Origin: Clostridia bacterium
GTDB lineage: Bacteria > Bacillota > Clostridia > UMGS1883
NCBI GenBank assembly: GCA_045580605.1
Contig: JAZNOC010000066.1
Coordinates: 1 to 32,438, forward strand
DNA length: 32,438 nt
Direction: 5' to 3'
Part shown: positions 3,374-31,345 of the stretch, piece after piece
How positions within the stretch are numbered: the stretch's first letter is position 1
How the letters are laid out: each line of letters starts with the position of its first letter
The notes under the pieces: model-generated
The model's database searches: none
Told to the model about the DNA's origin: nothing
Seen by the model: only the letters and a program-made list of their open reading frames with translations
Translations under genes and position numbers: made by a program

Positions 3374-3386
3374 CTAATTCCATCCC

Positions 3387-4505: not shown

Positions 4506-4510
4506 TTAAA

Positions 4511-5656: not shown

Positions 5657-5687
5657 TGTATATTACCCTTCAATCATACAAAATGCG

Positions 5688-7963: not shown

Positions 7964-7977
7964 CGTTATCCCTGCCT

Positions 7978-9420: not shown

Positions 9421-9421
9421 T

Positions 9422-10165: not shown

Positions 10166-10171
10166 AAGCTA

Positions 10172-10780: not shown

Positions 10781-10843
10781 TTTCCTTTTCCCCTTAGAGG
10801 GCAAGATAAGCACACTTTTGCCCAATTATACATATTCTATTTT

Positions 10844-10872
10844 ATTTTACCACTTTTTTTGTACATTGTCAA
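10844..10872 (-). promoter_or_regulatory. Sigma-A promoter of the polysaccharide operon
   Basis: Minus strand TTGACA-17 nt-TAAAAT with an extended -10 TG. Confidence 0.8.
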
Positions 10873-10970
10873 CAAAAAGAAGCGTGCCGCTTCACCCTTG
10901 TCGCACTCTTACCAAGTGCAGACATTAATTCCTGCGTTTTAATTTTACGCAATTTCCTGTACAACCAATA

Positions 10971-11006
10971 AAAACGACCGCAATATTCCTTTATTGCGGT
11001 CGTTTT
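10971..11006. terminator. Intrinsic terminator after the GRE gene (possibly bidirectional)
   Basis: AAAACGACCGCAATA-ttcctt-TATTGCGGTCGTTTT, a perfect 15-bp inverted repeat 3 nt past the GRE stop, ending in T-runs on both strands. Confidence 0.85.
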
Positions 11007-11009
11007 GTT

Positions 11010-13259
11010 TTAGCCGTTATAGAAGTTCCGGCTTAAAAATTCGTCCTGATATTCTTTTGAAAGAGCAACAAACTGCACTGAAAAACCGTACATTCTTACT
11101 ATGATATGACCATACTTTTCAGGCTCTTTCTGTGCTTTTAATAAGTCCTCTTTATTTACACAGTTAATCTGCATAATCTGTGCTTTGGATGCGGCACATC
11201 CGCGCAAAAATGCATTCAGTATCTCTTTGCTTGAGCTTGCTGCCGGTAAAATCACGTTTATTACCGTTCCCTTAGAGAAGTTACTGCTCTCAAAATATCT
11301 AAGTCCCGAGAAAACGTCTGTAACAGATTTTATTTTATGAAGTCTTGACGGTGTAAATCCCTGAGAAATCACATCCCCGTTATATCTTCCGTTGGGTGTA
11401 GCTTTAATATTTTTGCCCCACCATACAACCTCAGTATACATAAATGAGCCAATCTGCCACTTTCCGCCGTAAGATGTCGGGAGATTTCTCGTCATATTAT
11501 AAATATCATCTGCCAGCTTTCCCGTCATCCGTGCCGACTCCTCTGAGCTGTCCCCATAAGAGGGCGCTTCAAGCACGAGATTACGAAGCTTTTCATCCTG
11601 CCAGTTATTTTTGCAGGCATTCAATAGTTCTTTAAGTGTGCACAGTTTCTTGTCAAAGCACACATCCTTAATTGCAAGGAGTGAGTCAACGGTGTCGGGA
11701 AATGCTGCAAGATACATATTCTCCCAGTTGTATGTAGCACCGCCGTTTGTGTAGTCAGTTCTTTTTTCAAGAGGTCCATACATAAGCGCAGATGTAACAC
11801 AAAACGGAGCAACTCTTGACCAGTTGCGCATTCCAATTGACTCATCATTTGCCTTTTTCTTTATGATTTCAAGTATGTTATGCACAACTGCATTGTAAAC
11901 CTCATCAAAGGTTTCGCAATTTTCAAGTGCCTTAATGTCAAGTTGACACTCCTTTATCTTTTCTTCGGGCATATATATCGACCACTCCAACGCTTTAAGA
12001 GTGTTAACATACTGTCCGCTCTGTGCCTTGCAATAGTCATCCGCACCTGCATCCCAGCATCCTCCCACTGAGTAGTTTAAAGCGTGTTCCTTTTTAAACC
12101 CATGCTTTATAAGTGCGGGTAGTATTGCATCATCATTACAGTAAAGTAAAATACTTTTCTGACTAAGTATAGGTCTGTTAATAAGCGTAAGGTATTCCTC
12201 AGACGAATTTTCACTGTAACGGCATTTTATTTTGGGATACATATTGTCAAGTTCAAAATGCGCGGTTAAGATGAATTCCGTGATTTTATTGAAAACTTCA
12301 TTGCCGTTTTCGTCGCAACCACCAACTGTTATTGCATTTTCATATTCGTAGTCGGCATAGCCGGTCATTTTCTTACTCTTATCAATATGTGCATCCCAGA
12401 TAGTAAGAAACAAGCAAACTAAATCATAAATTTCTTCGTCTGAAACTCCGTTTTTCTTGTCGTTATCATAAAGCGGCGCCAACAAAACGTCAACTCTTCC
12501 CATTGAACCATAGCCTATTCCCTCTATCGTACCTACCGCTTTTCTGATAAATGTAAGTGTATTAAGCCCCTCATACACGGTTTCGGGTTTATTCCACGGC
12601 ACTCTTTTTGCTGTATCTGCAATAAGCTTAAGAGTTTTTATCTTCTCTTCATCTGTTTCGTTCTTTATCTTTTCTTCTGCACACTCTGCAAATTTTTCAC
12701 TGATTTTTTTAAGAGCTAAAATTCCCGCTATCGCACAATTTACAAAGTCTGTTTCTTCCTGATTTTCGCAAAGCTTAAGAGCTTCCACAGCTTCCTCATA
12801 AACACCTTTTAAGCCTCTCTCAAAAATCTTTTTGTACGGAAGTCTGAAATGCTCTAAATCCATATAAATATCATTACTGCAAATAAGCTGCTCTTCAACA
12901 TTTGCAAGGTGGCTTTTATACATTTTTGGATTTTCGGTTTCTGGAATATGGCGGTTACGCTCAATAAGCCAGCCATTTGCGTGGCGCATTCCGCGAAGGT
13001 AATGTCCGTCGCTATAGGGATGGAGTGCCCCCGTTTCAAAATAAAAGGGTACATCATCAAACAGAATTGGCTCAAAATTATCTGCAATACATTCGTATTG
13101 CTTTGCCTTTAATTCGTAATTGTTTAGTGTTGGGTTTTCATCAAACATTTTATCCAGATAACTATAACACTTTTCCTGTAGTTTTTGTGCGTTAACCGGT
13201 GCTTGATTAAGGTAATAATCATTAAGTATTTCTTTAACTAATTTATACTCCACTGTCAT
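11010..13259 (-). CDS. Glycyl radical enzyme, pyruvate formate-lyase superfamily, substrate unknown (start ATG 13259 or GTG 13253)
   Basis: About 750 aa. RVPWNKPET, SMGRVD, ITVGG, Cys loop GGCWD, ATPNGR, QINCV, and C-terminal Gly loop AQKEPEKYGHIIVRMYGFS. GAGGAG RBS. Confidence 0.85.
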   Translation of the reverse strand: MTVEYKLVKEILNDYYLNQAPVNAQKLQEKCYSYLDKMFDENPTLNNYELKAKQYECIADNFEPILFDDVPFYFETGALHPYSDGHYLRGMRHANGWLIERNRHIPETENPKMYKSHLANVEEQLICSNDIYMDLEHFRLPYKKIFERGLKGVYEEAVEALKLCENQEETDFVNCAIAGILALKKISEKFAECAEEKIKNETDEEKIKTLKLIADTAKRVPWNKPETVYEGLNTLTFIRKAVGTIEGIGYGSMGRVDVLLAPLYDNDKKNGVSDEEIYDLVCLFLTIWDAHIDKSKKMTGYADYEYENAITVGGCDENGNEVFNKITEFILTAHFELDNMYPKIKCRYSENSSEEYLTLINRPILSQKSILLYCNDDAILPALIKHGFKKEHALNYSVGGCWDAGADDYCKAQSGQYVNTLKALEWSIYMPEEKIKECQLDIKALENCETFDEVYNAVVHNILEIIKKKANDESIGMRNWSRVAPFCVTSALMYGPLEKRTDYTNGGATYNWENMYLAAFPDTVDSLLAIKDVCFDKKLCTLKELLNACKNNWQDEKLRNLVLEAPSYGDSSEESARMTGKLADDIYNMTRNLPTSYGGKWQIGSFMYTEVVWWGKNIKATPNGRYNGDVISQGFTPSRLHKIKSVTDVFSGLRYFESSNFSKGTVINVILPAASSSKEILNAFLRGCAASKAQIMQINCVNKEDLLKAQKEPEKYGHIIVRMYGFSVQFVALSKEYQDEFLSRNFYNG

Positions 13260-13274
13260 CACTCCTCACCTTGC

Positions 13275-17027: not shown

Positions 17028-17060
17028 AAAAAAGCTATTCCAGTTTGGAATAGCTTTTTT
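17028..17060. terminator. Bidirectional intrinsic terminator between groEL and the amidohydrolase gene
   Basis: AAAAAAGCTATTCCA-gtt-TGGAATAGCTTTTTT between convergent genes. Confidence 0.88.
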
Positions 17061-17063
17061 TAT

Positions 17064-17849
17064 TTAATTTTTCAGTATTCTCTCGGGGTTCTTTGTAAGT
17101 ATCTTTTCAATATCTTTGTCTTTAAGCCCAAGAGACATAAATGTTTCGTATTCATCCTTGGGGCTCCACATCGGGAAGTCCGACCCAAACACAAAACGGT
17201 CTGCGCCGTAAAGGTTTATAAGCTCCTTTGCACGCAGCTTACCCAATGTCGCAAATGAGCTTGACGTATCCATAAAGCAGTTTTCGTCTTTTAAAAATTC
17301 GTATGCTAAATCAGGCATAGACCATCCACCGAAGTGTGCCGCAATAACACAAAGCTTAGGAAATTTTGCAAGCAGCTTTTTCACTCTTGACGGATGTGAA
17401 TAATCATACCTGTAATCGCCGCAGTGGATAAGCACGGGAAGTCCAAGCTCTTGTGCCGCCTCGTAAATTTCATCCATATCCTTTGAATTTACCTTGAACT
17501 TTTGCGTATCAGGATGGATTTTTATTCCATGAAGACCAATATTTTTTATTCTCTCAACTTCCTCTGCCCCGTTTTCAAGGTCTGGATGGATTGTCCCAAA
17601 ACCTACAAACTGCTCGTATTTTTCACACTGCTCCTTTATAAAGTTATTTATGCTTGCAACCTGTTTTGGGATTGTTGCAACCGAATGAACAATGTGCTTA
17701 TTTATAGGAGAATTTTCTGAAAGTTCCAGAAGAGCCTCCGCCGTACCATGCCCCTCCATCTCGATATTATAAAACTGCCCGACAGCCTCAACTGCGCGGG
17801 AAGCGATTTTTTCGGGATAAATGTGAGCGTGAAAATCGTATATATTCAT
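17064..17849 (-). CDS. Amidohydrolase_2-type TIM-barrel metalloenzyme
   Basis: DFHAH, GIKIHP, LIHCG, AAHFGG, DTSS and FGSDFP metal-binding motifs. Confidence 0.9.
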   Translation of the reverse strand: MNIYDFHAHIYPEKIASRAVEAVGQFYNIEMEGHGTAEALLELSENSPINKHIVHSVATIPKQVASINNFIKEQCEKYEQFVGFGTIHPDLENGAEEVERIKNIGLHGIKIHPDTQKFKVNSKDMDEIYEAAQELGLPVLIHCGDYRYDYSHPSRVKKLLAKFPKLCVIAAHFGGWSMPDLAYEFLKDENCFMDTSSSFATLGKLRAKELINLYGADRFVFGSDFPMWSPKDEYETFMSLGLKDKDIEKILTKNPERILKN

Positions 17850-17869: not shown

Positions 17870-17900
17870 TTAACGGGGCTACAAATTGTAGCCCCGTTAA
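17870..17900. other. Intercistronic stem-loop
   Basis: TTAACGGGGCTACAA-a-TTGTAGCCCCGTTAA, a perfect inverted repeat. On the coding (minus) strand it is followed by ACAAAAAAGG rather than a U-tract. Confidence 0.7.
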
Positions 17901-17903: not shown

Positions 17904-18443
17904 TTATTCAAAATTGTATCCTGTTTCGATAGCTTTAAGGTTAACCTCAAGCATATCAGCACGCTTTGCAGATATTACCTTTTTAAGACCTGCTTCAAGT
18001 CCGTCGTAATTAACTGCACCTGTTTCCTTAATCATCTTGCCAACCATTATCATATTAGCAAGTGTCGGAGCGTTAATATCCTTAGCAATTTTTGTTGCTG
18101 GAATGTAGCATACCTTAACATCATCACGCTCAACCTTTTTGTCGATAAGTGATGAATCAAGAATAATGCATCCACCCTCTTTAACAGTATCCTGATATTT
18201 TTCGAGCGACGGAAGATTCATCGCAAACAAAACATCGGGATTTGCAATAATGGGCGAGCCTACTTTTTCATCGCTCAAAATTACGGAGCAGCTTGCAGTA
18301 CCGCCACGCATTTCGGGACCGTAAGACGGAAGCCAGCTTACGTTTTTGCCTTCGGTAAGCCCCATATAAGCAAGGAACTTACCTGCGAAAAGAACACCCT
18401 GACCGCCAAATCCGGCAATTATAATCTGTGTTGTATTACTCAT
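17904..18443 (-). CDS. 2-oxoacid:ferredoxin oxidoreductase gamma subunit
   Basis: AGFGGQGV, PSYGPEMRGGTA and ANMIMVG. Confidence 0.93.
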   Translation of the reverse strand: MSNTTQIIIAGFGGQGVLFAGKFLAYMGLTEGKNVSWLPSYGPEMRGGTASCSVILSDEKVGSPIIANPDVLFAMNLPSLEKYQDTVKEGGCIILDSSLIDKKVERDDVKVCYIPATKIAKDINAPTLANMIMVGKMIKETGAVNYDGLEAGLKKVISAKRADMLEVNLKAIETGYNFE

Positions 18444-18458
18444 AGCTACTTCCTCCCA

Positions 18459-19208
18459 TCACTCGTTATCCGCTGTTTTATCGCAGTAAACGCCAAGCGG
18501 ATAGTACGGAATCATCTTTTCTTCAACCCATTCAAGAGCCTTCTGAGGTGTCATACCCCAGTTTGTCGGGCAGCTTGAAACAACCTCAATAAGAGAGAAG
18601 CCTTTGCCGTTTACCTGATTTTCAAACGCCTTTTTGATTGCAGCCTTAGCAGCCTTAATGTTTTTAACATTGTTTACTGCAACACGATGCAAATAGCGGG
18701 GTCCGTCAAGTTGTGAAAGCATTTCACAAACTCTTATCGGGAAACCTGCAGTGCTTGTATCACGTCCGTAAGGAGAGGTCTGTGTAACCTGACCGGGAAG
18801 TGATGTCGGTGCCATCTGACCGCCTGTCATACCATAGATTGCGTTATTTACGAAAATAACTGTGATATTTTCGTTACGGGCAGCAGAGTGAACTGTTTCT
18901 GCCATACCGATTGATGCGAGGTCGCCATCGCCCTGGTATGTAAAAACAATCTTTGAGGGGTCTGCTCTTTTTATACCTGTTGCAACTGCCGGTGCACGAC
19001 CGTGAGCAGCCTCAACCATATCACAAGCAAAATAGTTATATGCCATAACGGCGCATCCAACGGGTGCAACACCTATTGTTTTACCTTCTATACCAAGCTC
19101 ATCAATAGCCTCTGCTACAAGTCTGTGAATAATACCGTGTGTACAACCGGGGCAATAGTGCATCGGTGCATCGGTAAGTGCATGCGGCTTTTCAAATACT
19201 ATACTCAT
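18459..19208 (-). CDS. 2-oxoacid:ferredoxin oxidoreductase beta (TPP-binding) subunit, VOR type
   Basis: HYCPGCTHG, HGRAPAVATG, YQGDGDLASIG, YGMTGGQ and CPTNW. Start is ATG 19208 (MSIVFEKP), overlapping the alpha stop (TAATG). Confidence 0.93.
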   Translation of the reverse strand: MSIVFEKPHALTDAPMHYCPGCTHGIIHRLVAEAIDELGIEGKTIGVAPVGCAVMAYNYFACDMVEAAHGRAPAVATGIKRADPSKIVFTYQGDGDLASIGMAETVHSAARNENITVIFVNNAIYGMTGGQMAPTSLPGQVTQTSPYGRDTSTAGFPIRVCEMLSQLDGPRYLHRVAVNNVKNIKAAKAAIKKAFENQVNGKGFSLIEVVSSCPTNWGMTPQKALEWVEEKMIPYYPLGVYCDKTADNE

Positions 19209-20263
19209 TAGTTTGCTCCCCCTTCTTTGATTTTTTCGAGAACCTGTTCGGGCGAAACAATCATTCCGCCTACACGGTTGCAAAGCTCTACGGGTTTCTT
19301 ACATTCGATTGCAAGCTTAACGTCTTCAATCATCTGACCCATAGAAAGCTCAACACAGATAAAGCGGTTTACCTTATCTGCAGCCTTAAGAAGCGCATCC
19401 TTCGGGAAAGGCCAGAGGGTAATCGGTCTTATCATACCAACCTTTATACCCTGACTTCTTGCCTCAACAACAGCATTCTGCGCTACTCTTGCGGCAATAC
19501 CGAATGCAACAACGCAGATTTCTGCGTCGTCCATCATAAATTCTTCGTACATAACCTCGTTTTTCTCAACCTCGGCATACTTCTCAAAGCGGGCGAAGTT
19601 AAGCTGTTCGAGTTCTTCCGGAACAAGTGAAAGTGAATTTACAATATTGTGCTTACGCTTCATCTCTGTTCCTGTAACAGCCCAGGGCTTGTCATATTCC
19701 TTAACCTCTACATCGTTAAGCTCAACAGGCTCCATCATCTGACCCATTGTACCATCTGCAAGAATCATAGAGGTCATTCTGTACTTATCTGCAAGGTCAA
19801 AGCCCTTGATTGTAAGGTCAGCCATTTCCTGAACAGAAGACGGGGCGAGAACAATCATCTTGAAGTCGCCGTGTCCGCCACCCTTAGTTGCCTGGAAGTA
19901 GTCAGACTGAGAGGGCTGAATGCCACCAAGACCGGGGCCACCACGCTCAACGTTAATTACAAGTGCGGGAAGGTCAGAGCCTGCCATATAAGAAAGTCCC
20001 TCGCTCTTAAGCGAAATTCCTGGGCTTGAAGAAGATGTCATAACTCTCTTACCTGTCGAAGCTACGCCGTAAACCATATTTATAGCAGCAACTTCACTCT
20101 CCGCCTGAAGGAATGTTCCGCCGATTTTGGGCATTCTCTTAGCCATATAAGCGGCAACCTCTGTCTGAGGAGTAATCGGATATCCAAAGTAATGTCTGCA
20201 GCCCGCCTTGATAGCAGCTTCAGCGAGAGCTTCATTACCTTTCATTAAAACCTTATCTGCCAT
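19208..20263 (-). CDS. vorB: 2-oxoisovalerate(-like):ferredoxin oxidoreductase alpha subunit
   Basis: MKGNEALAEAA, FGYPITPQ, QAESEVAA, TSSSSPGISLK, and RGGPGLGGIQPSQSDY characteristic of VorB-type alpha subunits. Confidence 0.9.
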   Translation of the reverse strand: MADKVLMKGNEALAEAAIKAGCRHYFGYPITPQTEVAAYMAKRMPKIGGTFLQAESEVAAINMVYGVASTGKRVMTSSSSPGISLKSEGLSYMAGSDLPALVINVERGGPGLGGIQPSQSDYFQATKGGGHGDFKMIVLAPSSVQEMADLTIKGFDLADKYRMTSMILADGTMGQMMEPVELNDVEVKEYDKPWAVTGTEMKRKHNIVNSLSLVPEELEQLNFARFEKYAEVEKNEVMYEEFMMDDAEICVVAFGIAARVAQNAVVEARSQGIKVGMIRPITLWPFPKDALLKAADKVNRFICVELSMGQMIEDVKLAIECKKPVELCNRVGGMIVSPEQVLEKIKEGGAN

Positions 20264-20272
20264 TTGTAAAAC

Positions 20273-20479
20273 CTACCTTTCTACCTTGATGATGCAGTCG
20301 GGACACATTGTCGCACAGAATGCACAGGCAATGCAAGCCTCCTGGTCAGTAATTTCTACGGGCGAATGGCCCTTTTTGTTAATTTTGTCCTTCGCAAGCT
20401 GCAAAAGATTTTTCGGGCAAGCGTTTACGCAAAGTCCGCAACCCTTACAGTTGTCGGTATCAAAAGTCAATTTAGCCAT
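20273..20479 (-). CDS. 2x[4Fe-4S] ferredoxin-like delta subunit
   Basis: CKGCGLCVNACP and CIACAFCATMCPD. AAGGAG RBS. Confidence 0.93.
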   Translation of the reverse strand: MAKLTFDTDNCKGCGLCVNACPKNLLQLAKDKINKKGHSPVEITDQEACIACAFCATMCPDCIIKVER

Positions 20480-20494
20480 TTTATCTATCTCCTT

Positions 20495-21154
20495 TTATAT
20501 AATTTTTTCTTGTAATTTAAGCGGGAAAACATTTTCTATACAACCCTTGGCTTCTTCGTACAAATTTTCAGGCACCGTTGTCATAACGATTGGAAGTCCC
20601 GAAAGAGACGCAAGCTTTTTAATTTCTTCGTCTGTATCAAGCACAGTTTTAACAGTTGTGTTTACGCCAAGATTTGAATTGTTGATTATTGCCGTGAATG
20701 GAATTTTAGATGCAAACTCAATCTCGCGCATTACCTCTATTGCCTCTTCGGCAGTTCTTGTAAGCGGTCTGTAAAGATTTGCAACGAAAATCATTTCATA
20801 ATCGTTTTCCTCAAGAATTGTCGGGGTATATCTACCAAGCGCGAGAGCACCGCGGTCATCACCGCCAACATCCATAATAAGCACCGTTTTTCTGTCCTCT
20901 AAAGCAGGATAAATTTCCTTTGGGAGTGCAGGTGCATCGAGGTTTGTATTTGCGTACTGCGAAGCTACAACCTCAATCCCCTTTTCCCGAAGCCTTTTCT
21001 CACTGTCCTTAGACCTGAAATACGGATTTACAATATCAATGTCGCAAAGAGCAACCTTTTTCTCTTCGCTGATTTTCTCGGCAAGGTTTACGGCAATGTT
21101 TGTTTTTCCGCTACCGTAATGCCCTGCAAGAAGCATAACACGTTTTATATTCAA
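20495..21154 (-). CDS. P-loop NTPase of unknown function (MinD/CooC-like SIMIBI class)
   Basis: Walker A GHYGSGKT, DIDIVNPYFRS and MDVGGDD. Likely start is TTG 21154 after GAGGTG; the ORF track uses GTG 21163. Confidence 0.8.
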   Translation of the reverse strand: MNIKRVMLLAGHYGSGKTNIAVNLAEKISEEKKVALCDIDIVNPYFRSKDSEKRLREKGIEVVASQYANTNLDAPALPKEIYPALEDRKTVLIMDVGGDDRGALALGRYTPTILEENDYEMIFVANLYRPLTRTAEEAIEVMREIEFASKIPFTAIINNSNLGVNTTVKTVLDTDEEIKKLASLSGLPIVMTTVPENLYEEAKGCIENVFPLKLQEKII

Positions 21155-21166
21155 CGGCTCCACCTC

Positions 21167-23455
21167 TTAAAGCTTATTTCTCATAATCTTACCGCTTGTT
21201 GTCTTAGGAAGCTCATCGCGGAACACCACAATTCTGGGATACTTATAAGGAGCAGTGTTCTTTTTAACGTAATCCTGAATTTCCTTTTTAAGTTCTTCAG
21301 GAGGAATTGTACCCTTTGTAAGAACTATGCTTGCTTTAACGACCTGACCGCGAACCTCGTCAGGTTCTGCAGATACGCCACATTCAAGAACATACGGAAG
21401 TTCCATAATAACGTTTTCAATCTCGAACGGTCCTATGCGATAGCCACTTGACTTGATAACATCGTCAATTCGGCTTACATACCAGTAGAAGCCGTCCTCA
21501 TCACGCCAGGCAACGTCGCCCGTGTGATACAAACTGTCTCTGAACGCATCCTTTGTTTTTTCTTCGTCGCCAAAGTATTCCTTGAATAAGCCACACGGAA
21601 GTTTATCGTCAATTCTGATAACGATTTCGCCGTTTTCACCAACGCCAACGCTCTTTCCGTCAGGGTCAACAAGGTCAACATTATAAAGCGGAACAGGTTT
21701 ACCCATTGAGCCAAGCTTGTGCTTTGAGCCAAACAGGTTACCGATTACAAGCGTAGTTTCACTCTGTCCGAAGCCCTCCATAACCTCAAGCCCTGTAAGG
21801 CTCTTAAGCTGACGGAAAACCTCGGGGTTAAGTGCCTCACCCGCAATAGTCGCATGCTCAACAGAAGAAAGGTCATACTTTGTAAGGTCTTCCTTTATAA
21901 GCATCCTGTACATTGTCGGCGGTGCACAAAATGTTGTGATTTTATATTTTGCAAACATCGGAAGTATGTTTGCGGCATTAAACTTATCAAAATCGTATAC
22001 GAAGATTGCACCCTCGCAAAGCCACTGACCGTAGAGCTTGCCCCACATAGCCTTAGCCCAGCCCGTATCGGAAATAGTAAGATGCAATCCCTCGGGATTT
22101 ACGCAGTGCCAGTAGTTTGCAGTGATAAAGTGCCCAAGCGGATACTTGTATGAGTGAGTTGCAATTTTGGGATAACCTGTTGTGCCTGACGTAAAGTACA
22201 TAAGCATTGTATCATCACCGCAGGGAGTATCCTCAGTCCTCTCATAAACATCGGAGAAGAGTGTGTATTCACTGTCAAAATTATGCCAGCCCTCACGCTC
22301 GCCGTTAACAATAATCTTTGTTGCAAGCGTGGGAGACTCTTTCTGTGCAAGCTCTGCCTGATGCGCAACATCACCGTCAGCAGTACATACAATTGCAGAT
22401 ATACCTGCCGCATTGCATCTGTACGAGATATCATGCTCCTGCAAAAGATTTGTTGCGGGAATTGCGACTGCACCAATTTTGTGAAGAGCAAGTATAGAAA
22501 ACCAGAACTGATAATGTCTCTTTAAAATAAGCATTACCTTGTCGCCCTTTTTGATGCCGAGCGATGTAAAGTAGTTTGCAACCTTGTTTGAGTAAAGCAT
22601 CATATCCTTAAATGTAAAGCGTCTTTCTTCGCCTTCATTTGAAATATGAAGCATTGCAAGCTTGTCGGGTCTTTTTTCTGCTAAGCCATCAACTATGTCA
22701 TAAGCAAAGTTAAACTTATCCTCGTTTTCAAACGTGAGAGACAAAAGGGCGCCACGCTCATCCTCTTTGGGGTGGATAAAGTTGTGGTAAAGCCTTCTGT
22801 AAGGCTGCTTCACCTTAACCTTGGTAGGCTCTGCAATTTCCTGAGTTTCACTCACTTTGTCTGTTGATGGATTAAGTACGATTGCATAGAAAAGGCAATC
22901 CTCGCCGCCAACTGCCACCATACCATGCGGAGTTGAGCTGTTGTAATATATACTGTCGCCCTCACTTAATATTTCAGTGTGCTGACCAATCTGTACCTTA
23001 AGCTTACCTTTTATAATAATATCACATTCCTGACCCTCGTGGGTAGTAAGCTCGATATCACGGTTTTCAGCCTGCGGATCGTAAACTGCGTTAACGTAAA
23101 GAGGTTCTGCAATTCTGTTTTTAAAGGTAGGAGCAAGGTTGTAGTAAATCATATCGTGCGCCTGCTCAATTCGCTGACCCTCACCCTTTTTCGTTACAGT
23201 ATACGACTTAAGATTGGGGCTGACACCCTCAATAATATCAGTTACGTCAACGTGAAGAGAAAGTGCACACCTGTAAATAAACGCAAAGCTTAAATCGTGC
23301 TCTCCGTTTTCGCAGGCTACATACTCTTCCCTTGAAACATCGCAAAGCTTTGACATTGTTTCAATGCTTAAGCCCTCGATTTCTCTCAGCTCTTTAATAC
23401 GAGCCGCCATAAGCTTGATTTTATAGTCAAGCCCTGTAATAATTTTTTCTTCCAT
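21167..23455 (-). CDS. Fusion of an XRE-HTH/cupin regulator and an AMP-forming short/medium-chain acyl-CoA synthetase
   Basis: N-terminal RIKELRE HTH and HEGQE..GDSIYYNSSTPHGM cupin. C-terminal ~550 aa has FNFAYDIVD, YFTSGTTGYPK, EGFGQSET, YHTGD and LPKTTSGK. AAGGAGAG RBS before ATG 23455. Confidence 0.92.
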   Translation of the reverse strand: MEEKIITGLDYKIKLMAARIKELREIEGLSIETMSKLCDVSREEYVACENGEHDLSFAFIYRCALSLHVDVTDIIEGVSPNLKSYTVTKKGEGQRIEQAHDMIYYNLAPTFKNRIAEPLYVNAVYDPQAENRDIELTTHEGQECDIIIKGKLKVQIGQHTEILSEGDSIYYNSSTPHGMVAVGGEDCLFYAIVLNPSTDKVSETQEIAEPTKVKVKQPYRRLYHNFIHPKEDERGALLSLTFENEDKFNFAYDIVDGLAEKRPDKLAMLHISNEGEERRFTFKDMMLYSNKVANYFTSLGIKKGDKVMLILKRHYQFWFSILALHKIGAVAIPATNLLQEHDISYRCNAAGISAIVCTADGDVAHQAELAQKESPTLATKIIVNGEREGWHNFDSEYTLFSDVYERTEDTPCGDDTMLMYFTSGTTGYPKIATHSYKYPLGHFITANYWHCVNPEGLHLTISDTGWAKAMWGKLYGQWLCEGAIFVYDFDKFNAANILPMFAKYKITTFCAPPTMYRMLIKEDLTKYDLSSVEHATIAGEALNPEVFRQLKSLTGLEVMEGFGQSETTLVIGNLFGSKHKLGSMGKPVPLYNVDLVDPDGKSVGVGENGEIVIRIDDKLPCGLFKEYFGDEEKTKDAFRDSLYHTGDVAWRDEDGFYWYVSRIDDVIKSSGYRIGPFEIENVIMELPYVLECGVSAEPDEVRGQVVKASIVLTKGTIPPEELKKEIQDYVKKNTAPYKYPRIVVFRDELPKTTSGKIMRNKL

Positions 23456-23477
23456 AAGATACTCTCCTTTTAGGGCA

Positions 23478-23526
23478 AACACAAATGCTCGCCCCAAGAT
23501 GTGATAAAAATCTTGAGACGAGCATT
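23478..23526 (-). terminator. T-box attenuator (terminator) hairpin
   Basis: AATGCTCGTCTCAAGAT...ATCTTGGGGCGAGCATT followed by TGTGTTT. Its 5' arm is the 3' strand of the antiterminator. Confidence 0.8.
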
Positions 23527-23760
23527 ATATCTTTGATATAAAATACCCGCGGTACCACTCAAATTGCATACAAGATGCCACTTCAGGCTCCAACAAGCCC
23601 TACGCTATTAACGCAAGCATAACGGGAAGGGTCTACTTTCTGCACAACAGAGTTCTTCCTTCCGGCTCAGGAGCTACAGATTGCAAAGGCCCTCTTTATG
23701 GCTTGCACCAACCGCCAATTCTCTTAAAAGACTGCCAAAGCATCACTCTCCGTCAATGCC
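23478..23760 (-). ncRNA. T-box riboswitch leader, branched-chain amino acid type (Val GUA most likely)
   Basis: T-box AATTTGAGTGGTACCGCGG at 23547-23565. Stem I has GA-motif ends (GGCATTGACGGAG / CTCCTGAGCC), an AGAGA bulge and a GGTGCAA loop. Stem II has AGTA, followed by CCGTTA. Antiterminator helices UUUGAG/CUCAAG and GCGGGU/GCUCGU. Confidence 0.92.
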
Positions 23761-23781
23761 TTTATTATTCATATACTATTA

Positions 23782-23810
23782 TTTTTACCACATATATATC
23801 AATTTGTCAA
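23782..23810 (-). promoter_or_regulatory. Putative sigma-A promoter of the T-box operon
   Basis: TTGACA-17 nt-TAAAAA with an extended -10 TG. The -10 lacks the final conserved T. Confidence 0.55.
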
Positions 23811-23815: not shown

Positions 23816-26800
23816 TTATTTAAAGAACTTAACCGCTGCCTCAAACATTCTTATGTCGTAGTTTCCTTCGACGTTCTTGTAAAGGCCGCTGCCAACTCTT
23901 TCACTGTGTCCCATCTTACCAAAGACTCTGCCATCGGGAGATGTGATACCCTCAATTGCATACATTGAATTATTGGGGTTAAAGTGAATATCTCCAGTTG
24001 CGTTATTATCTGCATCAACATACTGAGTTGCAATCTGTCCGTTTTTGGCAAGCTCTTTTATAAGCTTTTCGTCAGCAATAAATCTGCCCTCGCCGTGAGA
24101 AATCGGCACGCTGTAAACATCACCAACATTTGTAAGTGAAAGCCAGGGAGATTTGTTTGAGGCAACACGTGTGCGTACAATTCTTGACTGGTGGCGTGCA
24201 ATGGTGTTAAAGGTGAGTGTCGGGCAAGTTTCATCAGTATCAATAATCTTGCCGTAAGGAACAAGACCAAGCTTTATAAGTGCCTGGAAACCGTTACAGA
24301 TACCACACATAAGGCCGTCGCGGTTGTCAAGAAGGTCTGTAACGCCGCTGCGGATTTCATCATTTCTGAAGAATGCAGTTATAAACTTACCGCTTCCGTC
24401 AGGCTCATCACCGCCTGAGAAACCACCGGGAATGAATACCATCTGTGATTCTTTAAGAATATTTGCAAATTCCTTAACACTGTCTGAAATTCCCTTTGCG
24501 GTAAGGTTATTTATAACGAAAATCTTTGCCTCTGCACCGGCATTTTCCACCGCCTTAGCACTGTCAAACTCACAGTTTGTTCCGGGGAATACGGGAATAA
24601 GCACCTTAGGCTTAGCAGTTTTGACACTTGCAAACTTACGCTCTGTAGCCTCAAAACTAAAGTTTTCCATTTCAGTAGCCTTCTGCTTAATATTGCAGCT
24701 GTAAACACTTTCAAGCTTCTCTTCATAGATGTTAAGAAGCGAAGCAAGTTCAACACATTCGCCCTTGTAGCAGATGCTTTCCTTTTCAGTTACCTTTCCG
24801 ATAACTGTTTCGTCTGTCTCACCCTCTACCTCGAGCACAAATGCACCATAGTTGTAGCCAAAAATATCTTCAAGTGAAAGTACATCGTTAAGTTCTGCAC
24901 CTAAACCGTTACCAAAGCACATCTTCATCACTGCTTCAGCCACGCCGCCCATACCGGGTGTATAGCAGGCTTTAGCCTTGCCGTTTGAGAGAAGCTTTCT
25001 TACCTTATCAAAATTCTCGATAAGAGATTTTGTAACAGGGAGATTATTTTCGTCGTACTCAGGCTTAATAAGAACAATACTATTTCCTGCACATTTAAAC
25101 TCAGGAGAAACAATGTCTTTGATTTTTTCAGTTGTTACGGCAAAGGAAACAAGTGTCGGCGGAACATCAAGGTTTTCAAAGCTTCCGCTCATCGAGTCCT
25201 TACCGCCTATTGAGCCAATGCCAAGCTCCATCTGTGCCTTAAATGCACCAAGGAGTGCGCTAAACGGCTTGCCCCAGCGCTTCGGGTCGCCTGAAAGACG
25301 CTCAAAGTATTCCTGGAATGTAAGATAAACGTCTTTAAATTCTGCACCTGTTGCAATAAGCTTACAAACAGATTCCACAACTGCAAGATACGCACCGTGA
25401 TACTGGCTCTTTTCCATTATAAACGGGTTATATCCAAAGGACATAAGCGAGCAATCGTCAGTGTCCTTTCTTTCTGTTGAGATTTTTTGTACCATTGCCT
25501 GAATTGGCGTAAGCTGATTTTTACCGCCAAATGGCATAAGCACTGTGCCTGCACCGATTGTTGAGTCGAAACGCTCCGAAAGTCCTCTCTTTGAGCAGAT
25601 ATTCAAATCGCCTGCAAGGCTCTCGTAGTTTTCCCTAAATCCACCCTTTACTTCCTTTTCGTAAGGCTGGCACTTTGACGCCAGTACATTTATATGCTTT
25701 TCAGCACCGTTTGAGTTAAGGAACTCTCTGCTGATATCGCAAATCTTGACACCATTCCAGTTCATTACAAGGCGGGGATTTTCCGTTACCCGAGCCACGG
25801 GGCACGCCTGAAGGTTTTCACTGTTTGCAATTTCAAGGAAACGCTCAACGTTTTCCTTTTCTATTACAACAGCCATTCTCTCCTGAGATTCGCTGATTGC
25901 AAGCTCTGTGCCATCAAGACCCTCGTACTTTTTGGGAACTGCGTTAAGGTCAATTTCAAGACCGTCAGCAAGCTCACCAATAGCAACAGAAACGCCGCCT
26001 GCACCGAAGTCGTTACAACGCTTAATCATAAGGCAGGCTTCCTTGTTCCTGAAAATTCTCTGGAGCTTTCTCTCCTCGGGCGCATTACCCTTCTGTACCT
26101 CAGAACCGCAGGTTTCGATAGATTCAACAGTATGCGACTTTGATGAGCCTGTTGCACCGCCGCAACCGTCTCTGCCTGTGCTTCCGCCAAGGAGAACTAC
26201 AACGTCTCCGTCAAGCGGAGTTTCACGCCTTACGTTTTCCTTAGGTGTTGCAGCAATAACTGCACCGATTTCCATTCTCTTAGCGGCATAGCCGTCATGA
26301 TAAATCTCATCTACAATACCTGTAGCAATACCAATCTGGTTACCGTAAGAAGAATATCCTGCTGCAGCAGTTGTAACAATCTTTCTCTGCGGGAGCTTAC
26401 CCTCGATTGTTTCATTTATAGGCTTAAGCGGGTCTGCCGCACCCGTTACACGCATCGCACCGTAAACATAGCTTCTGCCTGAAAGCGGGTCGCGGATTGC
26501 ACCACCGATACAGGTTGCTGCACCGCCAAAAGGCTCTATTTCGGTAGGATGGTTATGTGTTTCGTTCTTAAAGAGAAGAAGCCACGGCTCTTTTTTACCA
26601 TCTACAGTTACATCGATGCAAACTGTACAAGCATTGATTTCTTCTGATTCGTCAAGTTTGTCAAGCTTTCCGTTTGCCTTAAGATGCCTTACTGCAAGTG
26701 TCGCAATATCCATAAGGCAGATGCTCTTTGTTCTGCCAAGCTCTTTTCTTGTAGCAATGTACTCTTCATAAGTTTTCTGCAAGAGCTCGTCTTCAAATGT

Positions 26801-27502
26801 AACATCATCAATAATTGTCTGGAATGTCGTATGACGGCAGTGGTCAGACCAGTAGGTGTCAATCATACGGATTTCTGTGATGGTAGGATCTCTGTCTTCC
26901 TTAATAAAATACTGCTGACAGAAAGTGATATCATCAATATCCATAGCAAGACCATATTCCTTGATAAATGCCGCAAGGCCATCACGGTCAAGCTTGGTAA
27001 ACCCGTCAAGTGTTTTAACACTTGTGGGGATTTCGTATTCTACATTAAGTGTTTCGGGCTTTTGAGTTGAAGCCTCTCTTGCTTCTACGGGGTTAATTAC
27101 ATACTTTTTGATTTCAGCAAGCTGAGAATCGGAAAGATTGCCGTAAAAAGCATAAACTTTTGCGGTACGGATAAGGGGTCTCTCGCCCTGAGAGATGAAC
27201 TGAATACACTGTGCCGCAGAATCTGCCCTCTGGTCAAACTGACCGGGCAAAAACTCTACAACAAAGCTAATTGCTTCTCCAAGTTCAATGCTTTCCGTAA
27301 CAATATCGGACTGAGGCTCGGAAAACACGGTCTTTTTCGCATTTTCAAAAAGCTCAGGTGTGATGTTTTCAACATCATATCTGTTTATAATTCGTACCTT
27401 TTCCAAGGTAGATATTCCAAGGAATGTTTTAAGCTCATAAAGCAAATTTTCACTATCGCCTGCAAACTCAGGCTTTCTTTCAACATAAGCTCTGTATACC
27501 AT
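23816..27502 (-). CDS. purL: Phosphoribosylformylglycinamidine synthase, large single-chain form
   Basis: 1228 aa. WSDHCRH, KNETHNHPTEIEPFGGAAT, DFGAGG, ESQERM, and glutaminase domain GGFSGGD, GICNGFQ, MGHSER. Confidence 0.97.
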   Translation of the reverse strand: MVYRAYVERKPEFAGDSENLLYELKTFLGISTLEKVRIINRYDVENITPELFENAKKTVFSEPQSDIVTESIELGEAISFVVEFLPGQFDQRADSAAQCIQFISQGERPLIRTAKVYAFYGNLSDSQLAEIKKYVINPVEAREASTQKPETLNVEYEIPTSVKTLDGFTKLDRDGLAAFIKEYGLAMDIDDITFCQQYFIKEDRDPTITEIRMIDTYWSDHCRHTTFQTIIDDVTFEDELLQKTYEEYIATRKELGRTKSICLMDIATLAVRHLKANGKLDKLDESEEINACTVCIDVTVDGKKEPWLLLFKNETHNHPTEIEPFGGAATCIGGAIRDPLSGRSYVYGAMRVTGAADPLKPINETIEGKLPQRKIVTTAAAGYSSYGNQIGIATGIVDEIYHDGYAAKRMEIGAVIAATPKENVRRETPLDGDVVVLLGGSTGRDGCGGATGSSKSHTVESIETCGSEVQKGNAPEERKLQRIFRNKEACLMIKRCNDFGAGGVSVAIGELADGLEIDLNAVPKKYEGLDGTELAISESQERMAVVIEKENVERFLEIANSENLQACPVARVTENPRLVMNWNGVKICDISREFLNSNGAEKHINVLASKCQPYEKEVKGGFRENYESLAGDLNICSKRGLSERFDSTIGAGTVLMPFGGKNQLTPIQAMVQKISTERKDTDDCSLMSFGYNPFIMEKSQYHGAYLAVVESVCKLIATGAEFKDVYLTFQEYFERLSGDPKRWGKPFSALLGAFKAQMELGIGSIGGKDSMSGSFENLDVPPTLVSFAVTTEKIKDIVSPEFKCAGNSIVLIKPEYDENNLPVTKSLIENFDKVRKLLSNGKAKACYTPGMGGVAEAVMKMCFGNGLGAELNDVLSLEDIFGYNYGAFVLEVEGETDETVIGKVTEKESICYKGECVELASLLNIYEEKLESVYSCNIKQKATEMENFSFEATERKFASVKTAKPKVLIPVFPGTNCEFDSAKAVENAGAEAKIFVINNLTAKGISDSVKEFANILKESQMVFIPGGFSGGDEPDGSGKFITAFFRNDEIRSGVTDLLDNRDGLMCGICNGFQALIKLGLVPYGKIIDTDETCPTLTFNTIARHQSRIVRTRVASNKSPWLSLTNVGDVYSVPISHGEGRFIADEKLIKELAKNGQIATQYVDADNNATGDIHFNPNNSMYAIEGITSPDGRVFGKMGHSERVGSGLYKNVEGNYDIRMFEAAVKFFK

Positions 27503-27520
27503 TAGTTTTCCTCCTTTGCC

Positions 27521-28789
27521 TTAAGCCTCGTAAGCCTTAAGTGCTCTTTGTCCGATGTCGTTTCTGTAATAAGCCTTATCAAACTGAATTTTCTTCGTTT
27601 TTTCGTAAGACAGCTTTATTGCAGTTTCAAGAGTATCAGCAATTGATGTAACACCAAGCACTCTGCCGCCGTTTGTGTAAAGCTTACCACCCTTAAGGTC
27701 TGCACCGGCAAAATAAATGTCATCAATAACATCTTCAGCTATAGTCATTTCCTTACCTTTTTCGTAGCTTTCGGGATATCCGCCCGAGGCTACTATAACA
27801 CAACAGGCATTTTTATCTTCGAATTCAACGTCTACCTCAGAAAGAGTCTGATTTGTTACTGCTTTCATAATAGTAAGCAAATCGCCCTTTAAAAGCGGAA
27901 GCACAACCTGAGTTTCGGGATCGCCAAAACGGCAGTTGTATTCGATAACCTTCGGGCCGTCCTTTGTGAGCATAAGTCCAAAGTAAAGGCAACCCTTAAA
28001 GGTTCTTCCCTCTTTGTTCATTGCATCAATAGTGGGAATGAAAATCTTTTCCATACACTCTTTTGCAATGTCTTTTGTGTAGTATGGGTTGGGAGCAACT
28101 GTTCCCATACCGCCTGTATTAAGACCTGTGTCGTTATCTCCTACACGCTTGTGGTCCATTGAAGAAACCATCGGCTTAACGCACTTTCCGTCAGTAAATG
28201 CTAAAACGCTTACCTCGGGACCTGTCAAAAATTCTTCAATAACGATTTGACGGCCGCTTGCGCCGAACTTGTCGTTTTCCATCATATCCTTAACGGCATC
28301 AATTGCATCTTCCTTATTTTCCGCAATGATAACGCCTTTTCCGAGTGCTAAGCCATCCGCCTTGATAACAGTTGGCATGGGAGCATTTTCAAGATACTTT
28401 ACTGCATCATCTGCATTTGTGAAAACCTCGTACTGAGCAGTCGGGATATTATATTTCTTCATAAGATTTTTTGAGAAAATCTTACTTCCTTCAATAATTG
28501 CTGCATTTTTATCGGGACCGAAGCAAGGGATACCCTTTGCACTGAGTGCATCAACACAACCGAGTACAAGCGGGTCATCGGGAGCAACAACTGCATAATC
28601 AATATTATTGTTAACTGCAAATTCAACGATTTTTTCAATATCCTTTGCACCGATATTTACGCACTCTGCATCGCGAGCAATACCGCCGTTACCGGGGAGT
28701 GCAAAAATCTTCTCAACTTCTTTATTCTCTTTTATTTTTTTGATTATGGCGTGCTCTCTTCCGCCACCGCCAACAACAAGAATATTCAT
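27521..28789 (-). CDS. purD: Phosphoribosylamine-glycine ligase
   Basis: GGGGREHA, KADGLALGKGV, NTGGMG, EYNCRFGDPE and NGGRVL. Confidence 0.98.
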   Translation of the reverse strand: MNILVVGGGGREHAIIKKIKENKEVEKIFALPGNGGIARDAECVNIGAKDIEKIVEFAVNNNIDYAVVAPDDPLVLGCVDALSAKGIPCFGPDKNAAIIEGSKIFSKNLMKKYNIPTAQYEVFTNADDAVKYLENAPMPTVIKADGLALGKGVIIAENKEDAIDAVKDMMENDKFGASGRQIVIEEFLTGPEVSVLAFTDGKCVKPMVSSMDHKRVGDNDTGLNTGGMGTVAPNPYYTKDIAKECMEKIFIPTIDAMNKEGRTFKGCLYFGLMLTKDGPKVIEYNCRFGDPETQVVLPLLKGDLLTIMKAVTNQTLSEVDVEFEDKNACCVIVASGGYPESYEKGKEMTIAEDVIDDIYFAGADLKGGKLYTNGGRVLGVTSIADTLETAIKLSYEKTKKIQFDKAYYRNDIGQRALKAYEA

Positions 28790-28807
28790 TTTATTCGTCC
28801 TTTCTGA

Positions 28808-29992
28808 TTAGTGGTGGAATAAACGCATTCCTATAAACGCCATAGCCATACCATACTTATCACAGCAATCAATTACCAAATCATCACGGATTGAACCGCC
28901 CGGCTCTGCAATATATTTTACGCCGCTTTTCTTAGCACGTTCAATGTTGTCAGAGAATGGGAAAAATGCGTCTGAGCCAAGTGATACGCCGTCAATGGTG
29001 TCAAGATAAGCACGCATTTCTTCAGGTGTAAATGGCTCGGGCTTTTTGGTAAAGTACTTTTCCCAGATACCGTCTGCACAAACATCCTCTTCGTTCTTAT
29101 TTATATAGCCGTCAATTACGTTATCTCTGTCAGCACGCTTAAGGTCATCACGGAAAGGAAGATTAAGCACCTTATCTGCCTGACGCAAGAACCAGGTATC
29201 TGCCTTTGTACCTGCAAGGCGTGTACAGTGAATTCTTGACTGCTGACCTGCACCAACACCGATTGCCTGACCGTCATAAGCAAAGCAAACTGAATTTGAC
29301 TGAGTGTACTTAAGAGTTATGAGTGAAATGATAAGGTCAATTTTTGCCTTTTCGGGAATGTCCTTATTTTTGGTTACAATATTCTGGAGCAAGCTTTCGT
29401 CAATCTTAAAGTTATTGCGACCTTGTTCAAATGTAATACCAAATACCTGCTTTGTTTCCTTTTCCTCAGGAACATAATTTTTATCAATTTTAACAACATT
29501 GTAATTGCCGTTACGCTTGGATTTTAATATTTCAAGAGCCTTATCAGTATAACCCGGTGCGATAATTCCGTCAGAAACCTCACGCTGAATAAGCTTTGCC
29601 GTAATTTCATCACACTCGTGAGAAAGAGCAACCCAGTCGCCAAAGGAACACATTCTGTCAGTACCTCTTGCTCTTGCATAAGCACAGGCAAGCGGAGAAT
29701 CGTCAAGATTTTCGATATCGTCAACAAAGCAAGCCTTTTTAAGCTTGTCGCTGAGCTTAATACCTACTGCCGCAGAGGTGGGACTAACGTGCTTAAATGA
29801 TGTAACCGCAGGAAGCCCTGTAGCCTCGGAAAGCTCCTTTACAAGCTGCCAGCTGTTAAACGCATCAAGAAAGTTTATGTAGCCGGGTTTTCCGCTAAGG
29901 ATTTCGATTGGAAGCTCACTTCCGTTCTCCATATAAATTCTGGAGGGTTTCTGGTTAGGGTTACAACCGTATTTCAATTCAAATTCTTTCAT
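28808..29992 (-). CDS. purH: AICAR formyltransferase, monofunctional (no IMP-cyclohydrolase domain)
   Basis: 394 aa starting at LKYGCNPNQ; SFKHVSP, GAGQQSR, SDAFFPF, PGGSIRD and RLFHH. Confidence 0.93.
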   Translation of the reverse strand: MKEFELKYGCNPNQKPSRIYMENGSELPIEILSGKPGYINFLDAFNSWQLVKELSEATGLPAVTSFKHVSPTSAAVGIKLSDKLKKACFVDDIENLDDSPLACAYARARGTDRMCSFGDWVALSHECDEITAKLIQREVSDGIIAPGYTDKALEILKSKRNGNYNVVKIDKNYVPEEKETKQVFGITFEQGRNNFKIDESLLQNIVTKNKDIPEKAKIDLIISLITLKYTQSNSVCFAYDGQAIGVGAGQQSRIHCTRLAGTKADTWFLRQADKVLNLPFRDDLKRADRDNVIDGYINKNEEDVCADGIWEKYFTKKPEPFTPEEMRAYLDTIDGVSLGSDAFFPFSDNIERAKKSGVKYIAEPGGSIRDDLVIDCCDKYGMAMAFIGMRLFHH

Positions 29993-30003
29993 TGGAAAGC
30001 TCC

Positions 30004-30723
30004 TTACTTATTTATATTTATCAAACGCTCTTCGATAGAGTTGTCTTTAAGATTTATAAATGCAACATAAAGCGAAATCTTGTTCTCGTTATTAAGATTT
30101 GTCCATAAGTCATTTGTAAACTCATCAATATCATTAGGAATAGTAACTCTCTCAGGCTCACCAACAAATGTCGGAAGCGGGTTACCATCTGTTACATAAG
30201 TGTGGATGAAGTGTCCCGTGCCCTTAAGCGAAGGATACGCAAAGTGGTATCTGCTGCAGGCACTTCCGATTTCATCGGCACTCTTGAGAATACTCATTTC
30301 GTAATCGAAATCACCATTTTCAAATGTAAGCATACCGCTTATACGAGGTGTAAAGTTGGGAGCGTCCGGTTCAAACTCACGCTTTGTAAGAGCCTTTGCA
30401 AATGACTCACCATTTTTAAGACCGTCAAGCACAGTATCTGTCTGGTCGCCATTGGTAACAACAAGCTTGTTTTCATAAGAGCCGATAGCCCTGTAAATTA
30501 TAAGGCTCGGGTCTTCAACCTTTGATGCGTCAAAAGGCTCAGTAAAAACTGCTCCGTCTTTAAGTGAGAAAACTCTGTTACGGCTGTTTTCGCTTCTGCC
30601 CATAATAAAATAAGCAACAGCGGCTTTTTCTCCATCCTCGGTTTTGCCGATTACAATGCCTCTTCCAACATAAGGGTTTCCTTTTATAATATCACCAATT
30701 TTGTTTTTTTCGTATACGTTCAT
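30004..30723 (-). CDS. purO: IMP cyclohydrolase (PurO-like)
   Basis: YVGRGI, YFIMGRS..SRNR, VTNGDQTD and EPDAPNFTPRISG. Adjacent to the truncated purH. Confidence 0.88.
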   Translation of the reverse strand: MNVYEKNKIGDIIKGNPYVGRGIVIGKTEDGEKAAVAYFIMGRSENSRNRVFSLKDGAVFTEPFDASKVEDPSLIIYRAIGSYENKLVVTNGDQTDTVLDGLKNGESFAKALTKREFEPDAPNFTPRISGMLTFENGDFDYEMSILKSADEIGSACSRYHFAYPSLKGTGHFIHTYVTDGNPLPTFVGEPERVTIPNDIDEFTNDLWTNLNNENKISLYVAFINLKDNSIEERLININK

Positions 30724-30734
30724 TCTTATCTACC

Positions 30735-31331: not shown

Positions 31332-31345
31332 ATTATATCCACCAA

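Follow-up and report, generated by a model that had tools for sequence, protein, structure and literature searches.

Why should a T-box leader stand in front of genes for an acyl-CoA ligase and a 2-oxoacid:ferredoxin oxidoreductase? Members of the T-box family switch genes on in response to uncharged tRNA, i.e. when an amino acid is scarce, and examples in Firmicutes include the ilv-leu operon and the leaders of ileS, valS and leuS. The window analysed here, the whole 32,438-nt contig JAZNOC010000066.1 of a Clostridia bacterium (assembly GCA_045580605.1), carries such a leader, followed on the minus strand by six closely packed genes for an AMP-forming ligase, a P-loop NTPase and a VOR-type oxidoreductase. 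We read this locus as a valine-starvation-induced salvage operon that would rebuild valine from isobutyrate and CO2, and give this reading a probability of roughly three in four. Every check by computation that the initial annotation had proposed came out on the side of its reading. It fits best because the classical genes ilvB, ilvC and ilvD were not found in the source genome, and because the ligase, VOR and an IlvE-type aminotransferase form one unit in many species.

Genome and locus sets

The source genome (G000) is a metagenome-assembled genome of 1.08 Mb in 99 contigs, 79.5% complete and with 41.6% GC, and the window is its contig C66. Records of relatives carry the names uncultured Clostridia, Acutalibacteraceae, Oscillospiraceae or Ruminococcaceae, and their habitats are ruminant and human gut. 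Twenty-eight open reading frames (ORFs) of the window were compared with Pfam, and the whole of G000 was scanned for T-boxes at E <= 0.001. The ligase class of the window is referred to as ACS(a) and a paralogous ligase class as ACS(b). Two sets of loci were compared: relatives' loci, in which the leaders upstream of ligase homologs were aligned (29 have upstream sequence), and a GTDB set of 80 loci from named genomes, containing 82 ACS(a)-class copies, 76 of them with at least 300 nt upstream. Specifiers in the GTDB leaders were read automatically first and the ambiguous remainder by eye. Among the relatives, G019 (95% complete) has the same operon as the window, and G012 is 96% complete.

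A valine-specific T-box leader

The control region contains the following elements:

23805..23810, minus strand: -35 box TTGACA (read from the sequence and by pattern scan)
About 23782-23790, minus strand: extended -10 element TGG-TAAAAA, after a 17-nt spacer from the -35 box (sequence and pattern scan)
23511..23765, minus strand: T-box leader, class I, transcription-terminating, Val-specific (RF00230)
23675..23677, minus strand: specifier GUA (Val), followed by the purine G at 23674 and the basal-helix strand CUCC (cmscan slot and leader comparison)
23546..23560, minus strand: T-box core GAG-UGGU-ACC-GCGGG (sequence and cmscan alignment)
23476..23526, minus strand: intrinsic terminator with a 17-bp stem (23526-23484) and a U-rich tail (minimum free energy (MFE) folding and cmscan alignment)

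This leader is a genuine T-box, able to form either a terminator or an antiterminator. In a permissive covariance-model scan it matched RF00230 over model positions 1-219 of 219 (77.1 bits, E 7.4e-17), and the match recurred in the whole-genome scan; with its core and terminator it is the complete leader that the initial annotation had described ahead of the operon, albeit at a score below 93 bits. The sequence also contains the AGAGA motif, and both TTGACA and a -10 element of the TGnTA type were found in homologous leaders. The terminator hairpin is strong (MFE -29.5 kcal/mol, z -6.41, with none of 200 shuffles equally good), and the 3' strand of the antiterminator is, in the covariance-model alignment, the 5' arm of the terminator, so that the two structures compete. 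A Shine-Dalgarno sequence and the ATG at 23455 come just 3' of the U-rich tail. Folded as a single sequence, Stem I gave a z of +0.85, and it was assessed instead from the covariance-model alignment and covariation.

The specifier of the leader reads as GUA, a valine codon, on comparison of the leaders. In the cmscan alignment GUA+G occupies the specifier slot, on the 3' side of the Stem I internal loop and directly before the basal helix. All 28 aligned relatives' leaders that cover the slot have UGUAG, preceded by C, U or A, and the basal helix covaries from GGAG/CUCC to GAAG/CUUC. The T-box core was present in all 29 relatives' loci with upstream sequence and in 75 of the 76 ACS(a)-class GTDB copies, so T-boxes stand before the homologous genes as well. 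The automatic reader returned GUA in 58 GTDB leaders, GUC in 5 and GUG in 1; of the 11 left over, 10 showed GUA by eye and one (L118) was unclear, giving a valine codon (GUA, GUC or GUG) in 74/76. Since synonymous codons vary in this slot, the classic signature of a specifier, we take it to be the specifier.

The only tRNA-Val of G000 has the anticodon UAC, is present in two copies and ends in A-CCA (A73), an end that fits the UGGU bulge. The possibility that the leader answers to an unrelated tRNA was thus examined, and the codon matches the genome's only tRNA-Val. Two other specifiers were considered and set aside: CUG (Leu), as its first base varies between C, U and A across the leaders, and UGU (Cys), as tRNA-Cys ends in U-CCA whereas the bulge is UGGU.

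Genes of the operon

Behind the leader lie six genes, listed in order of transcription:

21167..23455, minus strand: ACS(a), a fusion of HTH_XRE, Cupin_2, AMP-binding and AMP-binding_C domains, 762 aa (Pfam, NCBIfam)
20495..21163, minus strand: SIMIBI-class P-loop NTPase, 222 aa (weak CbiA/ParA match)
20273..20479, minus strand: 2x[4Fe-4S] ferredoxin-like protein, probable VOR delta subunit, 68 aa (Fer4 families)
19208..20263, minus strand: VOR alpha subunit, 351 aa (NF005507 VorB, 551 bits against a cut-off of 399; POR_N and PFOR_II)
18459..19208, minus strand: VOR beta subunit, TPP-binding, 249 aa (TPP_enzyme_C)
17904..18443, minus strand: VOR gamma subunit, 179 aa (PF01558; TIGR02175, 87.8 against a cut-off of 81.1)

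All are on the minus strand and are separated by gaps of 3-15 nt or overlap, and a pattern scan returned no terminator between them; the tight linkage of synthetase, ATPase, ferredoxin and VOR genes noted initially was borne out at these positions.

The ligase had been described as an acyl-CoA synthetase. Its AMP-forming ligase domains agree with this (PF00501, 212.9 bits; PF13193, 76.5 bits; short/medium-chain clade), but it is not a plain synthetase, as it carries an N-terminal helix-turn-helix (HTH)-cupin fusion. AMP-forming ligases are effectively irreversible in the direction of acyl-CoA. The best NCBIfam family of ACS(a) was MbcS (443.4 bits), and the nearest solved structure of the ligase domain was 3ETC (614 bits, residues 246-759). 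This structure is that of MacsMa of Methanosarcina acetivorans, whose preferred substrate is 2-methylbutyrate (PMC10455477). We propose that ACS(a) is an isobutyrate-CoA ligase.

The XRE-type HTH and the cupin make up residues 1-235 of the protein (window positions 22751-23455, minus strand), and the module has a weak match to 1Y9Q, a solved HTH_3 regulator. Most relatives have the full-length fusion; ACS-only homologs at about 46-62% identity also exist. The fusion could be a DNA-binding 'trigger enzyme'.

The oxidoreductase appears to be a four-subunit enzyme of the POR/VOR type, with activity on branched substrates suggested by family annotation. The beta subunit, below every NCBIfam cut-off, starts at an ATG (19208) that shares its first base with the stop codon of alpha (from translation and homolog). 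Of the ferredoxin and VOR alpha, beta and gamma subunits named initially, the VOR subunits stood; the supposed free ferredoxin is most likely VOR delta, judging from its two 4Fe-4S motifs (TIGR02179 PorD_KorD, 45.3 against a cut-off of 60.05).

The P-loop NTPase was kept between the ligase and VOR genes in 57/80 related loci. It had no sequence match in the PDB; its structural model (predicted local distance difference test score, pLDDT, 88.7) had SRP/FtsY GTPases and ATPase-type HypB as best folds, at template modelling (TM) scores of 0.51-0.59, and its Atlas neighbours were CbiA/ParA clusters without annotation. A metal-cluster ATPase of the NifH or CooC kind was rejected, as the protein has one cysteine.

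The classical route and the remaining pathway genes

Neither IlvD nor IlvC was found in G000, G019 or G012, while controls were matched in 14/14 genomes. Among 39 genomes of the genus, matches above the cut-off were obtained for IlvD in 2 and for IlvC in 3. The large subunit of acetolactate synthase (ilvB) was detected in one of five genomes, G018, and not in G000; LeuB exceeded its cut-off, among the genomes tested, in G018 only. The suggestion that ilvBCD might be missing was accordingly upheld for G000, as far as a genome 79.5% complete can be read, and for most of the genus. In a hand-compiled comparison of 81 relatives, which share descent and are not independent, IlvD exceeded its cut-off, among the matches listed, in 14 of the 29 that lack a full-length fusion ligase of either group (a or b) and in 2 of the 52 that have one.

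None of the 28 window ORFs was an aminotransferase by Pfam, as had been noted at the outset. G000 encodes an IlvE-type aminotransferase (Aminotran_4/IlvE) on another contig, at C74:3862-4929, and a PFOR on C50 (1835 bits). The description of the pathway as self-contained consequently fails for the window, although IlvE lies inside the operon in many relatives.

A scheme can be proposed from these parts. Under valine shortage, uncharged tRNA-Val(UAC) would pair with the leader at two places, the GUA specifier and the UGGU bulge, and this pairing would stabilise the antiterminator and allow RNA polymerase to read through the terminator. The AMP-forming ligase would then convert isobutyrate to isobutyryl-CoA at the expense of ATP, which yields AMP and PPi; the four-subunit VOR would carboxylate isobutyryl-CoA with CO2 to 2-oxoisovalerate, using reduced ferredoxin from a source such as PFOR; and the IlvE-type aminotransferase, encoded elsewhere in this genome and within the operon in many relatives, would form valine.

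We infer the anabolic direction of VOR from regulation and gene content. The initial annotation had taken the regulation to settle that VOR runs anabolically; regulation, gene content and the ilvBCD results do favour this direction, at the strength of a deduction, and the gating of VOR is not universal (see below).

Operon conservation and other T-box units

In 57 of the 80 GTDB loci ACS(a) is directly followed by the NTPase and ferredoxin-like genes, with or without Vor genes behind them. The remaining 23 comprise 4 with less than 500 nt of downstream sequence and 19 with at least 2.5 kb. IlvE adjoins the VOR genes in 34 of the 44 GTDB loci that reach VorC. The idea that VOR linkage is confined to the closest relatives was too narrow, given these 57 loci.

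ACS(b) lies immediately upstream in 40/80 GTDB loci and has a leader of its own. The specifier of that leader was AUC (Ile) in all 13 readable relatives' leaders, a fourteenth being masked by N, and in 40/40 GTDB leaders (22 automatically, 18 by eye). The base after a T-box specifier is usually a purine; many ACS(b) leaders in L080-L159 and L041-L059 have C, not a purine, after AUC. A third T-box, with the specifier CUC (Leu), is found downstream of IlvE, where it precedes a LeuA-like gene and a fusion of a TIM barrel with an AMP-ligase. Exactly three T-boxes were recovered by Rfam in each of three loci tested (77.6-123.7 bits). Since isoleucine and leucine thus have T-box-gated ligases of their own, the operon of the window is not one switch for three acids: of the response to valine, isoleucine and leucine together that was first envisaged, the valine part stands (GUA) and the isoleucine and leucine parts do not.

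ACS(b) was not found in G000. In G018 it lies between purL and the valine unit, a place where, in the window, purL abuts the valine leader.

G000 has seven T-boxes. Three stand before thrS, pheS and an ileS-like gene, and four before acid-activating genes, in Val, Leu, Phe and Tyr units (these four specifiers read by eye). Besides the valine operon they are:

C72 (L008) 151-5969, minus strand: Leu (CUC) T-box with a LeuA-like gene and an 832-aa fusion, then a Phe (UUC) T-box with a PaaK-type ligase
C89 (L009) 4-5777, plus strand: Tyr (UAC) T-box, truncated at the end of the contig, before genes for a Na+/solute symporter, a CoA ligase, IorA and IorB

On C72, the LeuA-like protein is short (462 aa) and below all LeuA cut-offs, and keeps the LeuA_dimer domain; in the 832-aa protein a xylose-isomerase-like TIM barrel is joined to an AMP-ligase, and PaaK, behind the UUC leader, is of the phenylacetate-CoA ligase type. 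The C89 genes are the symporter (238-1788), an AMP-forming CoA ligase (1797-3434), IorA (3442-5199) and IorB (5202-5777); for IorA/IorB, TIGR03336 scores 743 bits against a cut-off of 651. From its gene content this unit is a candidate route from 4-hydroxyphenylacetate to tyrosine. A second cluster, PaaK-IorA-IorB-PaaK, was observed at C61:1141-6159 (minus strand), with proteins 62-76% identical to those of C89 and C72; no T-box was found there in the genome scan.

A broader picture can be drawn from these units. In a large uncultured Oscillospirales clade of gut and rumen, de novo synthesis of branched-chain and partly of aromatic amino acids may have been replaced by a T-box-wired salvage regulon, with one CoA ligase per acid gated by the matching tRNA (Val, Ile and Leu via VOR, Tyr and Phe via IOR), with the HTH-cupin module as a trigger enzyme forming a second, acid- or acyl-CoA-sensing layer, and with the P-loop NTPase assembling VOR or driving carboxylation. 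Taken with all its parts, we regard this picture as doubtful.

Alternative explanations

Several findings weigh against the reconstruction of valine from isobutyrate. The leader scores 77.1 bits against an Rfam gathering score of 93, and at the gathering threshold RF00230 had no match in the window; being under this cut-off, the T-box is missed by a default annotation run. The leader before ACS(a) in L118 looks like CUG+G, Leu-like and not a valine codon, and L133 lacks a T-box core between ACS(b) and ACS(a). The 443.4 bits of ACS(a) compare with an MbcS equivalog cut-off of 850, which makes it a relative and not an MbcS equivalog. G018 and G028 carry the fusion ligase together with IlvC/IlvD, so both routes can coexist, and genes not found in G000 may be unassembled, as the genome is only 79.5% complete. 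Since VOR is reversible, gene content alone leaves its direction unfixed. Finally, the coupling of VOR to the T-box is not found everywhere: no VOR genes were present in at least 2.5 kb downstream of ACS(a) in 19/80 GTDB loci, the Val T-box-ligase stands alone in nine orthologous loci of the same order (L061-L069), and a cluster of the same genus in G012 (L160, C2:185500-200500, minus strand) had no detectable T-box in 15 kb. That cluster is tight and comprises a LeuA-like gene, the TIM::ligase fusion, IlvE, NTPase, ferredoxin, VorABC and an ACS-only homolog.

Because no T-box was detected at the VOR cluster in G012 and the ligase stands alone in L061-L069, it is the ligase, not VOR, that is gated throughout, and T-box control of VOR is not universal. 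This leads to a narrower explanation, in which regulation acts at the ligase only, as the committed step, and VOR is a housekeeping enzyme, constitutive and reversible, whose genes lie behind the Val T-box in this lineage as a side effect of gene order; the regulation would then say little about the direction of VOR. The G012 cluster (in its IlvE-NTPase-Fdx-VorABC part), the solitary ligases of L061-L069 and of the 19 GTDB loci, and the Ile T-box-ligase, which was never followed by VOR genes in 13 loci (L041-L052, L059), all speak for it. It has to contend with VOR genes directly behind the ligase in 57/80 loci, with the gaps of 3-15 nt and the lack of a terminator between genes in the window, and with an IlvE that is co-operonic in 34 of the 44 loci reaching VorC. 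Moreover, with ilvC and ilvD not found there is no other visible source of 2-oxoisovalerate, so any synthesis of valine by the cell requires VOR to work in the reductive direction. We consider the narrower explanation unlikely.

Another possibility is that the ligase scavenges isobutyrate to provide isobutyryl-CoA primers for iso-branched fatty acids, the Val T-box being explained by valine as the usual source of the primer. MbcS, the best NCBIfam family of the ligase, supplies branched fatty-acid primers in Staphylococcus aureus, and in the rumen work of Allison isoacids are said to enter lipids as well as amino acids, a point that counts in its favour. Yet, with the flow toward acyl-CoA, a VOR (and in relatives an IlvE) induced by lack of valine would deplete valine; every ligase paralog has the T-box of its matching amino acid, and the aromatic IOR parallels have no connection with lipid primers. 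A role in lipid priming thus seems quite improbable.

A catabolic operon that takes valine through 2-oxoisovalerate and isobutyryl-CoA to isobutyrate for energy is very improbable, even though, in the parts of the literature on VOR, isobutyrate and valine that were covered, no anabolic VOR appears and gut-bacteria papers treat VOR/PorA as degrading branched-chain amino acids, since a T-box turns genes on under amino acid scarcity, an AMP-forming ligase cannot conserve energy from acyl-CoA, and the operon has no phosphotransacylase/kinase or ADP-forming synthetase by Pfam and NCBIfam.

Relation to known systems

It has been known since the 1960s that rumen bacteria need isoacids and convert them to valine, isoleucine and leucine. 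In studies by Allison et al. (1962-1971), rumen bacteria reportedly carboxylate isobutyrate, 2-methylbutyrate and isovalerate reductively to Val, Ile and Leu. The chemistry proposed for the window (acid to acyl-CoA to 2-oxoacid to amino acid) and the habitat of a rumen or gut anaerobe are alike; the rumen work, however, was physiological and based on labelling, while what we describe is a gene set with a regulator for each amino acid, known from sequence. An isovalerate-to-leucine route has also been described (PMC7356843). Within our literature search, no paper named genes or a regulator for the conversion of rumen isoacids to Val, Ile or Leu.

Branched-chain amino acid biosynthesis is under T-box control in Bacillales and Clostridia (PMC2494555). 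The window leader resembles those leaders in its family (RF00230), in its specifier and UGGN bulge, in its terminator/antiterminator switch, and in the logic by which shortage of one amino acid turns on its supply. It differs in scoring below the Rfam gathering cut-off and in controlling an organic-acid CoA ligase and a 2-oxoacid:ferredoxin oxidoreductase rather than ilv/leu genes, a tRNA synthetase or a transporter. The words CoA, oxidoreductase and ferredoxin have no occurrence in the main text of that study (PMC2494555; its supplements lay outside the search).

As for the enzymes, MacsMa (3ETC), the nearest solved relative of the ligase domain, lacks the N-terminal HTH-cupin module and a known T-box. 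Anabolic 2-oxoacid:ferredoxin oxidoreductases (VOR and IOR) of methanogens are reportedly the subject of work by Tersteegen et al. (1997) and Porat et al. (2004). They share with the system proposed here the four-subunit architecture and the carboxylation of acyl-CoA to amino acid precursors; unlike them, the window system is bacterial, is coupled to a ligase of its own and is under the control of an RNA that senses tRNA. No paper linking a T-box to VOR, IOR or such an acyl-CoA ligase was found in the literature search (the supplements of T-box surveys and Vitreschak et al. 2008 lay outside it). The one paper in which a T-box riboswitch and a CoA ligase both occur concerns, by its title, a Staphylococcus epidermidis genome. 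The chemistry is old, and T-box regulons and isoacid carboxylation are each known, whereas their combination was found in no paper.

The cluster provides testable candidates, with one ligase per acid and a shared VOR and IlvE. The T-box serves as built-in evidence of direction, because it is switched on under starvation, and argues against the automatic labelling of VOR and IOR as amino acid degradation in gut metagenomes. The reading bears on metabolic models of gut and rumen, on predictions of auxotrophy and cross-feeding, and on the rationale for feeding isoacids to ruminants, and it would add organic-acid activation and ferredoxin-dependent CO2 fixation to the functions known to be under T-box control.

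Flanking regions

Downstream of VorC, three further features were recorded:

17870..17900, minus strand: 14-bp hairpin after VorC, followed by an A-rich, not U-rich, stretch; no canonical operon terminator
17064..17849, minus strand: Amidohydro_2 protein (PF04909), 261 aa, possible seventh gene (Pfam and sequence)
17028-17060, minus strand: hairpin and U-tract terminator after the Amidohydro_2 gene (sequence)

Because the hairpin after VorC has no U-tail and a proper terminator occurs only past the Amidohydro_2 gene, the transcription unit may hold seven genes, that one included. Homologs of the Amidohydro_2 protein lie in or beside the cluster in 6/80 loci (L105, L110, L130, L131, L157 and L158; 43-48% identity), and a paralog was observed in G000 at C61:20290-21087.

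Upstream, at 23816-32386 of the window, is a pur operon (purM, purN, IMP cyclohydrolase, AICARFT, purD and purL). Its last gene stops 5 nt short of the T-box operon's -35 box, and no terminator was seen in between. At the other end, positions 106-13262 hold a polysaccharide cluster with a B12-binding radical SAM protein, an FrhB-like protein and a pyruvyl transferase, and a PFL-like glycyl radical enzyme (11010-13262) is encoded beside an AraC regulator.

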